From NCBI RefSeq assembly GCF_050920415.1, contig NZ_CP169309.1: a stretch of 64,000 nucleotides of DNA, one strand, 5' to 3'. Position 1 is the stretch's first letter; every line of letters starts with the position of its first letter. The notes under the pieces were generated by a model. That model had not been told where the DNA came from, ran no database searches, and saw nothing but the letters and a program-made list of their open reading frames with translations. The position numbers were made by a program, and so were the translations under genes. This document shows positions 54,570-58,578 of the stretch, one piece after another. The DNA comes from Escherichia coli. GTDB lineage: Bacteria; Pseudomonadota; Gammaproteobacteria; Enterobacterales; Enterobacteriaceae.

Positions 54570-54944
<375 letters not shown>

Positions 54945-55306
54945 TTATGAGAATAAATACTCATTTAAGGGTGAAAACATTTTGCCTGCAAATCATTATC
55001 AAGAAATATAACATTATCGAAGTATTCAAATTAACAACTATTAAATAATATTAAACATTTTTAACGTAAGCATTAAGAATATTCATCTTGTTATCTGCCT
55101 GTATTTTAAACAGAATTAAACCAGTACTAGATTCCGTATGAATATCTCGAAATGTTGCTGTGTATCACATACAAATCATTGCTGCAGGACCATAGTATTT
55201 ACATAAAGTTTGTCCCCCGGAGGTAGTCATCGCAGCAATCGAGTAAATTAGCTTCACCACGGTATATTGTTTCCGTAGAATACCCATAATTATAAGAGAG
55301 GTTGTT

Positions 55307-55366
55307 ATGATTGAACGTGAACTGGGGAACTGGAAAGACTTTATCGAAGTTATGCTTCGTAAGTAA
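55307..55366 (+). CDS. ypfM: Small protein YpfM (19 aa)
   Basis: ATG ATT GAA CGT GAA CTG GGG AAC TGG AAA GAC TTT ATC GAA GTT ATG CTT CGT AAG TAA = MIERELGNWKDFIEVMLRK, preceded by AGAGAGG RBS; absent from the ORF track because of its length. Confidence 0.7.
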   Translation: MIERELGNWKDFIEVMLRK

Positions 55367-55426
55367 TTCCTGAGACAAAGTACAAACAGAAAGTACCTGC
55401 TGAACAGGTTCTTTATCGGAAAGTTG

Positions 55427-55458
55427 AAAAAGGCGACACATTGGTATGTCGCCTTTTT
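55427..55458. terminator. Bidirectional intrinsic terminator between ypfM and acrD
   Basis: AAAAA-GGCGACA-(loop)-TGTCGCC-TTTTT; A-run and T-run flank a 7-bp stem, so it can terminate both strands. Confidence 0.6.
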
Positions 55459-55464
55459 AATTGC

Positions 55465-58400
55465 TTATTCCGGGCGTGGCTTCAGCGGGAAGCGGCGGCG
55501 TACCAACACAAAGAACAGCGGCACGAAGTAAATAGCCAGAATCGTGGCCGAAATCATCCCGCCCATTACGCCAGTACCCACCGCATGCTGGCCACCGGAA
55601 CCGGCCCCTGTGCTGGTTGCCATTGGCAATACGCCGAAGATAAAGGCCAGAGAGGTCATCAGAATCGGACGTAAACGCTGACGGCAGGCGTGGAGCGTCG
55701 CTTCAAACAGGTCGTGGCCTTTTTGGTTCATCTCGTTAGCAAACTCGACGATAAGGATGGCGTTTTTCGCCGATAAACCAATCACCGTTAACAGGCCTAC
55801 CTGGAAGTAAACGTCGTTTTCCAGCCCGCGCAGCCATGTTGCCAGCAGCGCGCCGATAACGCCCAGCGGCACGACCAGCATCACCGAGAACGGCACCGAC
55901 CAGCTTTCATACAGCGCCGCCAGACACAGGAATACCACCAGCAATGAAATGGCATACAGCGCCGGAGCCTGCGCGCCGGAGAGTCGCTCCTGATACGACA
56001 TCGCCGTCCATTCCAAACCAAAGCCGCTTGGCAACTGCTTCACTAACGATTCCATAATATCCATTGCCGTACCGGTGCTGACCCCCGGCGCGGCTTCCCC
56101 GACAATCTCTACCGCTGAATAACCGTTATAGCGTTCCAGACGCGGCGAGCCTGTTTCCCAGCGTGAGGTCGCGAAAGCAGAGAAGGGGACCATGCCACCA
56201 TCTTTATTTCGTACATACCAGAGATTGATGTCATCTGGCAGCATGCGATATGGCGCAGCTGCCTGCACATAGACTTTCTTCACGCGACCGCGATCCATAA
56301 AGTCATTCACATAGCTCGAACCCCACGCGGTTTGCAGCGTGTCGTTAATATCGTCGATAGCAACGCCCAGCGCCTGAGCTTTACGCTGATCGATATCAAT
56401 CTGCAACTGCGGACTGTCGTCGAGGCCGTTATGGCGTACACGGGTTAACTCCGGATTTTCCGCCGCCAGAGCCAGCAACTGGTTACGTGCTGCCATCAGC
56501 GCATCGTGACCCGCACCAGCGTGGTCCTGCAACTCCATATCAAAACCCGCAGAACTGCCAAGGCCACTAATTGCTGGCGGGCTGCTGGCGATAACGCGAG
56601 CTTCTTTAATCTTATTAAATTCCTTCGTTGCACGTTCGATAATGGCAAACGAGGTGCCGGTCTTACTGTCGCGTTCGCTCCAGTCTTTCAGGCGGATAAA
56701 CATTCGCGCCACGTTTTGCCCGTTACCCCCAGGGCCAGAACCAACGGTGGCAAACACTGACATGATGTTGTCTTTTTCATGGGTGAAGTAATATTTCTCG
56801 ATTTGCTCAACGACTTTCAGGGTCTGTTGTTGGGTTGAACCGCTGGGCAACTGTACCGAGGTAGTAAACATGCCACGGTCTTCCAGCGGCAAGAACGACG
56901 TCGGCAAACGCAGGAACAGGAACACCATGCCGCCAAGCAGCAGGACATAAATCACAATCCAGCGCAGGCTACGGTGGAGAATTTTTGCTACCCCTTTTTC
57001 GTAGCGTTCGGCGTTGCGGTTAAACATCTGGTTAAACCAGGCAAAAAAGCCTTTTTGCCCGTGATGCTCACCTTTTTTCAGTGGCTTAAGTAGCGTGGCG
57101 CACAGAGCCGGAGTGAGGATCATCGCTACCAGTACTGACAGCACCATCGCCGCAACAATGGTAATAGAGAACTGGCGATAGATAGCTCCGGTGGTGCCGC
57201 CGAAGAAGGCCATTGGCACAAATACCGCCGACAGCACCATCGCAATCCCGACCAGTGCTCCCTGGATCTGCCCCATCGATTTACGTGTGGCTTCGCGAGG
57301 AGTGAGTCCTTCCTCACTCATAATACGTTCGACGTTTTCCACCACCACGATGGCGTCATCCACCAGCAGACCGATCGCCAGCACCATCGCGAACATGGTT
57401 AAGGTGTTGACGCTGTAACCGAAGGCGTAAAGTACGGAGAAGGTTCCCATCAACACCACCGGCACGGCGATAGTTGGTATCAGCGTGGCACGGAAGTTTT
57501 GCAAGAACAGATACATAACGAGGAAAACCAGGGCGATAGCTTCCAGCAGCGTTTTCACCACGTCTTCAATGGAGGCTTTAACAAATGAGGTGGTTTCATA
57601 TGCCACCTTGTATTCCAGTCCATGTGGGAAGTACTGCGCCAGTTCGTCGAGACGATTGAGTACCAGCTCCGCTGTTGCCATTTCGTTCGCGCCGGAGGCC
57701 AGTTTTACCCCCAGCCCGGAGGCTGGCTTACCGTTGAAGCGGCTGAGATAATCGTATTTCTCTGCCCCCATTTCGACGGTGGCGACATCGCCCAGCCTTA
57801 CTTCTGAGCCGTCCTGATTCACCCGTAAGGTGATATCGCGGAACTGTTCTGGTGTTTGCAGCAGTGACTGGGCGTTAATGGTGGCGTTGAGCGCCTGCTT
57901 ATCGACGGAAGGCGTACCACCAAGTTGCCCAACCGCAATCTGCGCGTTCTGTGACTCAATGGCATCAGTGACATCTTTAGCCGTCATCTGAAAACTGTTG
58001 AGTTTCGCCGGGTCCAGCCAGATACGCATTGAATATTGCGAACCATAGGCATCGATATCCCCGACGCCATTCACGCGGCTTAATGGGTCCTGAATATTAC
58101 TGGCAACGTAATCGGCAATATCCTGCTTATCCATCGAACCATCGGTAGAGACGAAGGCAATGGTAAGAATGTTGGTATCGCCGGTTTTACGCACCGTCAC
58201 GCCCTGATTTTGCACCGCCTGCGGCAACTTTCGCATGGCTGATTGCAGCTGGTTTTGTACTTGCTGCACTGCTTCGTCCGGATCGGTGCCCGCTTTAAAA
58301 CTTAAGGTGACAGATGCCTGACCGGTGCCACTGCTTTGAGACGACATATACATGATATTATCGAGGCCGGTCATATTTTGCTCGATAACCTGGGTCACGG

Positions 58401-58578
58401 TGTTTTCCAGCGTCTGAGCCGATGCGCCGGGGTAGTTAGCGGTTACTCGCACGTTAGGCGGTGCAAGATCCGGGTATTGTTCAACGGGCAATGAGAAAAT
58501 CGCCAGGGTTCCTGTCAGACACAACAGGATTGCCAGCACCCAGGCAAAAATGGGGCGATCAATAAAGAAATTCGCCAT
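55465..58578 (-). CDS. acrD: RND-family aminoglycoside/multidrug efflux pump
   Basis: 1037 aa; [41 protein letters not shown]... typical AcrB/AcrD N-terminus. Confidence 0.95.

Follow-up and report, generated by a model that had tools for sequence, protein, structure and literature searches.

ypfM, a conserved 19-codon gene in the yffB-acrD spacer of Escherichia coli, and its predicted pairing with the small RNA ArcZ

The stretch of DNA analysed here (the window) comprises 64,000 nucleotides of contig NZ_CP169309.1 of Escherichia coli (RefSeq assembly GCF_050920415.1), and all coordinates are positions in it. The genes yffB (54570-54926, minus strand) and acrD (55465-58578, minus strand) bound a spacer at 54927-55464, which is 538 bp as already given in an earlier note on this DNA. 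On the plus strand the spacer carries an open reading frame of 19 codons plus TAA at 55307-55366, with the ATG at 55307 and the stop codon at 55364-55366. Its translation is MIERELGNWKDFIEVMLRK. This is the coding sequence of ypfM, recognised by its translation, the RefSeq annotation, an NCBIfam profile and dN/dS; yffB is its 5' neighbour and acrD its convergent neighbour. The earlier note had described the frame as present in the DNA and absent from the list of open reading frames, and both statements are correct: the exact ATG-TAA frame is there, and it is missing in the list because the ORF lister reports nothing below 20 amino acids. Eleven ORFs of at least 15 codons are found in the spacer and three of these have a Shine-Dalgarno-like motif; an ORF of 77 amino acids (55441-55674, plus strand) starts within the last 24 nt. 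As a bare ORF, a frame of 19 codons is no more than expected by chance. It is the conservation that sets ypfM far above chance.

A megablast search of the spacer against 5,426 complete RefSeq genomes of E. coli gave matches in 5,425 of them, and "ypfM: protein YpfM" was listed under the match. In a strain that is 100% identical over all 538 bp of the spacer, RefSeq annotates exactly this ORF as ypfM, and in K-12 MG1655 the same ORF is annotated as ypfM (b4606) with the RefSeq product name "uncharacterized protein". YpfM also matched the NCBIfam equivalog NF033843 (small_YpfM) with 59.2 bits (cut-off 33, E = 2.4e-16) over profile positions 1-19 of 19; for this search the peptide was padded with the in-frame Val codon upstream to meet the minimum length of 20 amino acids. 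The identical strain, K-12 and the equivalog thus agree on the name that the earlier note had given to the gene. A search of Pfam returned no family for YpfM. In E. coli that carries the identical sequence, top-down mass spectrometry detected intact YpfM, covered to 100% and with an N-formyl-Met, and DIA and PRM detected it in addition (PMC12529367). In at least one natural isolate, an IS1-associated deletion has taken out ypfM together with acrD and narQ, and the gene is dispensable there. In sum, ypfM is already known; it has been annotated in K-12 for years and is named automatically by the NCBI pipeline. There is nothing new in the gene itself and, with its long annotation and the peptide seen by mass spectrometry, the finding matters little as a discovery. 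It is rather a calibration case, in which a gene of 19 codons escapes any ORF list that has a length floor.

The comparison between species was anchored on the neighbouring protein YffB and covered loci from 80 species, one genome each; ypfM was not presupposed. In 70 of the 80 species, a YpfM-like ORF is located upstream of yffB in divergent orientation; in 67 of them its length is exactly 19 codons plus stop, which answers the proposal of the earlier note to look for conservation of the 19 codons. Length variants are YpfM of 20 amino acids in Yersinia and of 22 in Hafnia. Within the 80-species set, no YpfM-like ORF was found upstream of yffB in several Erwinia, in Lonsdalea, Photorhabdus and Serratia silvae and in some Yersinia. 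The C terminus of acrD is present in 69 loci and about 67 of those also carry ypfM; in Dickeya, ypfM adjoins yffB and acrD was not found within the ~2.2 kb of the locus downstream of ypfM.

Among 52 distinct coding sequences of 19 codons, 7, 5 and 15 columns are variable at codon positions 1, 2 and 3, respectively, and the summed entropies are 3.8, 3.9 and 12.0. Eleven of the 19 residues are invariant in this set, and the stop codon varies among species between TAA, TGA and TAG. On the yffB tree, Fitch parsimony counted 25 changes at first, 26 at second and 100 at third codon positions of ypfM. The dN/dS ratio (Nei-Gojobori) is 0.09 in the frame of ypfM. Of the five other frames, four have values of 1.6-2.1, and the fifth, an antisense frame whose wobble positions coincide with those of ypfM, has 0.28. 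Variation at third positions together with a dN/dS of 0.09 therefore speaks for selection on the peptide rather than on the RNA. By the measure of these alignments, the YpfM peptide is under strong purifying selection in the Enterobacteriaceae and some other Enterobacterales. The earlier note had held that the gene would be disproved by synonymous sites no better conserved than the flanking intergenic DNA. The ORF withstands this comparison, as the rate of synonymous change is about 2.4 times lower than in yffB and the adjacent 3'UTR cannot be aligned, but it is the wrong test for coding since neutral synonymous sites would be nothing unusual in a real gene; the proper test is dN/dS together with 3-periodicity, which the ORF passes.

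The only ORF that a list with such a floor shows at the ypfM locus is on the opposite strand. This frame of 80 amino acids (55199-55441, minus strand) overlaps ypfM in antisense, as the earlier note had pointed out, and the note's suspicion that it is spurious was borne out. No other ORF in the spacer is as long, and an AAGG precedes its ATG by 12 nt; on these grounds one could take this frame for the real gene and ypfM for its antisense shadow. Such a reading is almost certainly wrong. The dN/dS of the antisense ORF in its own frame is 1.71. Among 71 sequences, from 70 species and the window, 17 have an in-frame stop codon inside its overlap with ypfM, and the length that stays open varies between 8 and 120 codons. 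The loop of the acrD terminator hairpin contains the ATG of this ORF, Pfam gives no match for it, and RefSeq does not annotate it. Moreover, the wobble positions of ypfM are the first codon positions of the antisense ORF. The comparative data thus refute the antisense ORF as a gene; 3-periodic variation and dN/dS separate it cleanly from the frame of ypfM.

The ORF is embedded in what looks like a complete transcription unit. A promoter, P1 (55253-55281, plus strand), was recognised by a consensus scan, by its conservation and by its entry in a sigma-70 list: it has the -35 hexamer TTCACC at 55253-55258, a spacer of 17 nt and the -10 hexamer TAGAAT at 55276-55281. Across 71 sequences, the -10 element and the TTCA of the -35 element are conserved at 85-95%, TAGAAT itself at 90-95%, and the same pair of hexamers was listed for ypfM in sigma-70 genomic SELEX (Shimada 2014, PMC3946193). 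The transcription start would then be at about 55288. The ribosome-binding site claimed in the earlier note is evident as a Shine-Dalgarno sequence, GAGAGG, that reads from 55296 to 55301 on the plus strand, 5 nt upstream of the ATG; its AGAGG is kept at 90-100% across species. Right after the stop codon the picture changes. The 3'UTR (55367-55426, plus strand) is poorly conserved, with an identity to the window of only 17-43% and many gaps; it contains a weak local hairpin (55395-55409), and its fold is no better than that of shuffled sequences (z = 0.11).

The transcription unit of ypfM is followed by a predicted bidirectional intrinsic terminator at 55427-55463, common to ypfM on the plus and acrD on the minus strand, for which a terminator scan, folding and conservation speak. 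The stem arms are AAAAAGGCGACA and TGTCGCCTTTTT, and a T-run follows on each strand. Flanked by an A-run and a T-run, the G+C-rich hairpin (55427-55458) has a folding energy of -18.9 kcal/mol (z = -5.3) when read from the plus strand and of -18.4 kcal/mol (z = -6.3) from the minus strand, and UUUUU is found 3' of the stem on both strands. Folding with a 3' U-run in both directions lends structural support to the bidirectional terminator that the earlier note had placed downstream of ypfM. Conservation of the stem arms is 83-100%, with a variable loop between them; the terminator begins 6 nt after the stop codon of acrD. Altogether, the conservation profile has its peaks at the -35 element, the -10 element, the Shine-Dalgarno sequence, the ORF and the terminator stems, and collapses in the 3'UTR.

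According to this model, a transcript of ~175 nt with a leader of 19 nt would originate at the sigma-70 promoter TTCACC-17-TAGAAT, the strong Shine-Dalgarno sequence 5 nt before the ATG would drive translation of a cytoplasmic peptide of 19 residues, and transcription would end at the hairpin that would also terminate the convergent acrD. The best explanation of the data as a whole, in which we have high confidence, is that ypfM is an independently transcribed, monocistronic gene for a small protein of 19 residues.

The very short ORF with a terminator hairpin next to it, in the neighbourhood of stress-related genes, would also be compatible with a regulatory leader peptide or attenuator, or with a type I toxin, instead of a free-standing functional peptide. 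We regard this as very unlikely. A leader peptide requires a gene to regulate, but on the plus strand there is no structural gene downstream; past the terminator lies only the 3' end of the convergent acrD, in antisense. What is conserved is the amino acid sequence and not merely translation, as seen from the 11 invariant residues. Type I toxins are hydrophobic, unlike YpfM, which has four acidic and four basic residues among its 19 (charge +4/-4) and a mean hydrophobicity of -0.12. In addition, a search of Rfam gave no family match for an antisense RNA partner of ypfM. Leader peptide, attenuator and type I toxin were rejected on these grounds, and a free-standing small protein is the reading that we retain.

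The distal part of the ypfM mRNA also corresponds to a family of RNAs. RF01409 of Rfam (STnc250) matches the plus strand at 55346-55465, where the final seven ypfM codons, the 3'UTR and the terminator lie; the first model positions correspond to the codons for EVMLRK and the last ones to the terminator. The match extends over the full model (1-94) with E = 2e-6, and its score of 39.4 bits does not reach the gathering score, which is 42. This shortfall is due to the variable loop, which is 25 nt longer here (a stretch of 32 nt versus 7 in the model). STnc250 was described as the ypfM small mRNA by Sittka 2008 (PMC2515195). In Salmonella, this mRNA was enriched 4-fold in Hfq coimmunoprecipitation and was seen as a stable, short transcript with a band of ~220 nt in Northern blots (PMC2515195).

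The match to STnc250, the enrichment with Hfq in Salmonella and the short transcript with an intrinsic terminator and U-tail would all be in line with a non-coding, Hfq-binding sRNA as the conserved element, the 19-codon ORF being incidental. The coding signature makes this highly improbable: the substitutions are 3-periodic, the dN/dS of 0.09 is specific to the frame of ypfM, the length of the ORF and its stop are kept in 67 species even though the stop codon itself varies, and the Shine-Dalgarno sequence is conserved. The RNA outside the ORF and the terminator is not conserved. Furthermore, the intact peptide was found by mass spectrometry (PMC12529367), and those who named STnc250 reclassified the RNA as a small mRNA (PMC2515195). 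STnc250 as a non-coding sRNA is effectively refuted by the coding signature, the conserved ORF and the peptide; STnc250 is a small mRNA and the label "sRNA" in Rfam is misleading. Rfam matches to CsrC (~22 bits versus a gathering score of 61) comprise only the terminator hairpin and do not represent CsrC.

Synonymous change in ypfM is slow. At sites of matched degeneracy and on the same tree there were 4.9 changes per site in ypfM and 12.0 in yffB (Mann-Whitney p = 6e-5); for yffB a codon-threaded alignment was used. A conserved RNA structure was considered as the cause and rejected: RNAalifold on the leader plus ORF of 62 distinct sequences gave no consensus structure, and the minimum free energy of the sequence in the window equals that of its shuffles. 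The preferred codons GAA, AAA, AAC and CGT explain part of the constraint; the conserved GGG and CTT do not fit such a preference. Pairing with ArcZ may explain another part, although the advantage of the duplex is only modest.

A link between ypfM and the small RNA ArcZ is apparent from published interactomes. In a table derived from RIL-seq (PMC8175672 supplement, Bar 2021), ypfM (CDS) appears with one partner only, and the number of chimeric fragments is 2,829. The partner was assigned as ArcZ by matching the feature values (96 interactions, SIC 0.921), and the assignment was then confirmed by CLASH. Hfq CLASH contains 13 hybrids of arcZ and ypfM from the exponential and the transition phase, flagged as being found also in RIL-seq (PMC7213987 supplement). 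The ypfM fragment of these hybrids is TATGATTGAACGTGAACTGGGGAACTGG and corresponds to 55306-55333 of the window, that is codons 1-9.

The pairing site itself was predicted by a windowed scan with the ArcZ seed, since whole-molecule RNAduplex gave unrealistic solutions with long loops. The best duplex of the seed on the ypfM mRNA is at 55315-55330 (plus strand, codons 3-8) with -15.5 kcal/mol, an energy that is not significant taken alone because 17% of shuffled sequences do as well, and it lies inside the CLASH fragment. The ArcZ motif is UUCCCUGG; the predicted core of 9 bp pairs 55321-55329 (ACUGGGGAA) with UUCCCUGGU of ArcZ. The site is in the ribosome-binding window, and translational repression is thus the likely outcome of pairing. 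In this model, ArcZ would pair over codons 3-8 of the ypfM mRNA, which binds Hfq, and abundant ArcZ would lower the synthesis of YpfM.

It is tempting to speculate that the relation also works the other way round and that ypfM is a dual-function RNA or a sponge, which titrates ArcZ or is reciprocally controlled by it, perhaps along with SdsR, which has the same UUUCCCUGG motif; part of the conservation of the ORF would then be at the level of the RNA. Of the 28,271 chimeric fragments of ArcZ in exponential phase, 2,829 are with ypfM, in addition to the 13 CLASH hybrids, and one CLASH hybrid joins the same site of ypfM to SdsR sequence. The slow synonymous change, 2.4-fold relative to matched yffB sites and including the non-preferred GGG and CTT, points in the same direction. 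In 43 of 46 species the duplex with the ArcZ seed is stabler than the mean of synonymous recodings (on average -15.1 versus -12.4 kcal/mol), and most codon variants at Leu6 (CTG, CTA, TTA, TTG) retain the pairing. However, when each species is considered by itself, the duplex ranks by its energy no higher than the top ~17% of synonymous recodings, and the species do not count as independent cases. Synonymous change is slow across the whole ORF and not confined to the ArcZ site, and it fits in part the ordinary preference for GAA, AAA, AAC and CGT. Neither a conserved RNA structure in leader and ORF nor a conserved 3'UTR was found, and by its RIL-seq features ypfM resembles a target (SIC -0.69, sRNA score 0.009; PMC8175672 supplement). 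We therefore consider a sponge or dual-function RNA unlikely. An SgrS-like, trans-acting sRNA was rejected on the basis of the same two scores and because sequence conservation is confined to the ORF and the terminator and leader plus ORF have no conserved structure. The small-protein gene, as a presumable target of ArcZ, is the reading that we carry forward.

Upstream of P1, at 55152-55196 on the plus strand, a conserved motif and a -10-like element form a putative second promoter or regulator site. The motif, AAT(A/G)TTGC-N6-(G/A)TCACAT(A/T)A, lies between the divergent promoters, with TTGC at 55155-55158 and TCACA at 55165-55169. TCACA occurs in 60 of 60 extracted 22-mers, in some of them at other offsets, and TTGC in about 45-51 of the 60. 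About 21 nt past the motif follows the conserved -10-like element CATAGT (55191-55196), with the nATAnT variants TAATAAT, GATATT and CATATT. Judged from its geometry, the motif would fit a class II promoter of the CRP/FNR type, with the 14-mer at -41.5 and a transcription start near 55203. The band of ~220 nt in Salmonella is longer than the ~150 nt expected there from P1, so that a second start further upstream may exist; a promoter of the CRP/FNR type would give a longer transcript, closer to the size of this band.

These observations can be combined to a more far-reaching idea, namely that codons 1-9 of ypfM are a selected dock for the oxygen-responsive ArcZ, and possibly for SdsR, and that the gene has a second promoter of the CRP/FNR type (55155-55196). 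We offer it as a speculation with a small chance of being correct. If true, ypfM would be one of the main Hfq partners of ArcZ, be it as a decoy or as a target under tight control, the CRP/FNR-type site at -41.5 would tie the synthesis of YpfM to oxygen or carbon status, and docking would explain the ~2.4-fold slower synonymous change in ypfM. ArcZ pairing, slow synonymous change and the CRP/FNR-like motif could guide experiments on the role of YpfM.

As to the peptide, its amino acid sequence most likely folds into a short amphipathic helix. The helical hydrophobic moment of YpfM is 0.546, which places it in the top 2.5% among shuffled sequences of the same composition. In a helical arrangement, I2, L6, W9, F12, I13, M16 and L17 would make up a hydrophobic face; the invariant I2, W9, F12, I13, M16 and L17 would be on one side, and the most variable positions, 4, 8 and 15, on the other. 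This would lead to the assumption that the helix of YpfM docks on a larger protein partner, in the manner of other bacterial small proteins that have been characterised.

How does ypfM compare with known systems? Small proteins of enterobacteria with a defined partner include AcrZ, the partner of the AcrB efflux pump, which is a transmembrane helix of 49 amino acids. YpfM is likewise a small enterobacterial protein, and its gene adjoins the RND pump gene acrD in ~67 species. However, YpfM has only 19 amino acids, is charged and has no membrane-spanning segment. A role as an AcrZ-like pump partner was set aside in view of the missing membrane segment and of Dickeya, where ypfM adjoins yffB and acrD was not found downstream. 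At the level of the RNA, the ypfM mRNA shares with RNAs of the SgrS/SgrT type that it is short, Hfq-bound, ends at an intrinsic terminator and encodes a translated small protein; unlike SgrS/SgrT, it is target-like in its RIL-seq pair and has no conserved seed outside the ORF. STnc250, known as "Hfq binding RNA" from Salmonella, comes from the orthologous locus and is the same RNA as the ypfM mRNA of the window, from which the Rfam model differs by the ~25 nt that the 3'UTR of E. coli has in addition in the variable loop. The closest relative is ypfM of K-12. The arrangement, divergent from yffB and convergent with acrD, is the same in the window, in K-12 and in strain MFDS1022581. The spacer differs from that of K-12 at 21 of 538 positions, all of which are outside 55209-55389, a segment with the promoter, the leader, the ORF and the initial 23 nt of the 3'UTR in it. 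Between the promoter and this point of the 3'UTR the two genes are thus identical in nucleotides, sequence comparison gave identical YpfM, and the promoter hexamers, the terminator and the position relative to acrD and yffB are the same as well.

Synonymous third positions of ypfM (55307-55363) have a rate of change about 2.4-fold below that of matched sites in the divergent neighbour yffB on the same 60-species tree, with 4.9 parsimony changes per site in ypfM versus 12.0 in yffB (p = 6e-5). The conserved codons include the non-preferred GGG (Gly7) and CTT (Leu17), and no conserved RNA structure was found that would account for the slow synonymous change. Pairing with the sRNA ArcZ, together with codon bias, explains it only in part.

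The gene is not present everywhere. In two Erwinia, Erwinia endophytica and Erwinia sp. OLFS4, ypfM is absent and acrD and yffB are still adjacent. Yersinia nurmii and Y. artesiana carry a 20-aa form of the protein, MVD.EL.TWKEFI..MLRKA, and the form in Hafnia paralvei is divergent, has 22 aa and is preceded by a poor Shine-Dalgarno sequence. Within E. coli, about 20 of 5,426 genomes are without a near-full-length yffB-acrD spacer. One loss was seen in the human isolate strain 81 (NZ_CP088131.1; 3001-4200 of locus L084), in which the spacer is interrupted after 210 bp by IS1A; since aegA follows directly after the insertion element, ypfM, acrD and narQ have been deleted. The spacer of the window (54927-55464) has only about 96% identity to most E. 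coli, with matches of at least 99% in just 7 records and 87 records in the 90-95% band. Despite this divergence, a block of 181 nt (55209-55389) matches K-12 without a difference. The source of the window is a less common E. coli lineage.

Between the divergent promoters of yffB and ypfM lies a conserved motif, AAT(A/G)TTGC-N6-(G/A)TCACAT(A/T)A, which is followed by a -10-like element (55152-55196 together). All 60 extracted 22-mers contain TCACA, some of them at a different offset, and about 45-51 contain TTGC. The -10-like element, nATAnT, is conserved about 21 nt 3' of the TTGC/TCACA motif; it has the form CATAGT in the window (55191-55196), and TAATAAT, GATATT and CATATT are variants of it. 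Judged from the sequence, this spacing fits a candidate 14-mer of the CRP/FNR family whose centre would lie at -41.5 relative to the start, putatively near 55203, of a second ypfM promoter. Such a start would fit the Northern band of about 220 nt seen for the Salmonella transcript better than P1, the inferred sigma-70 promoter of ypfM at 55253-55281. On the minus strand, the yffB promoter hexamers TTCATA-16-TTTAAT (55115-55142) have the sequence reported in a sigma-70 SELEX study; their position gives yffB a leader of about 180 nt and leaves about 110 bp between the two divergent -35 elements.

A single CLASH hybrid joins ChiX to the 'ypfM 5'UTR' at 55123-55151 on the plus strand. This segment is antisense to the promoter region of yffB and lies 5' of the two candidate promoters of ypfM; a 'ypfM.5UTR' entry is also present in RIL-seq tables, with 140-157 chimeras. 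These reads may reflect plus-strand transcription from a start further upstream, or noise. At 55425-55463, weak Rfam matches to CsrC on both strands (about 22 bits, where the gathering score is 61) are confined to the terminator hairpin and are a generic terminator resemblance, not a CsrC gene.

A second sRNA may share the ArcZ site. SdsR and ArcZ have the motif UUUCCCUGG in common, and one CLASH hybrid connects SdsR sequence, labelled 'pphA 5UTR', to the ypfM site at 55321-55334 that is also the site of ArcZ. The duplex of SdsR with this site is predicted at -15.6 kcal/mol. In Salmonella, yffB is a validated SdsR target (PMC5137417).
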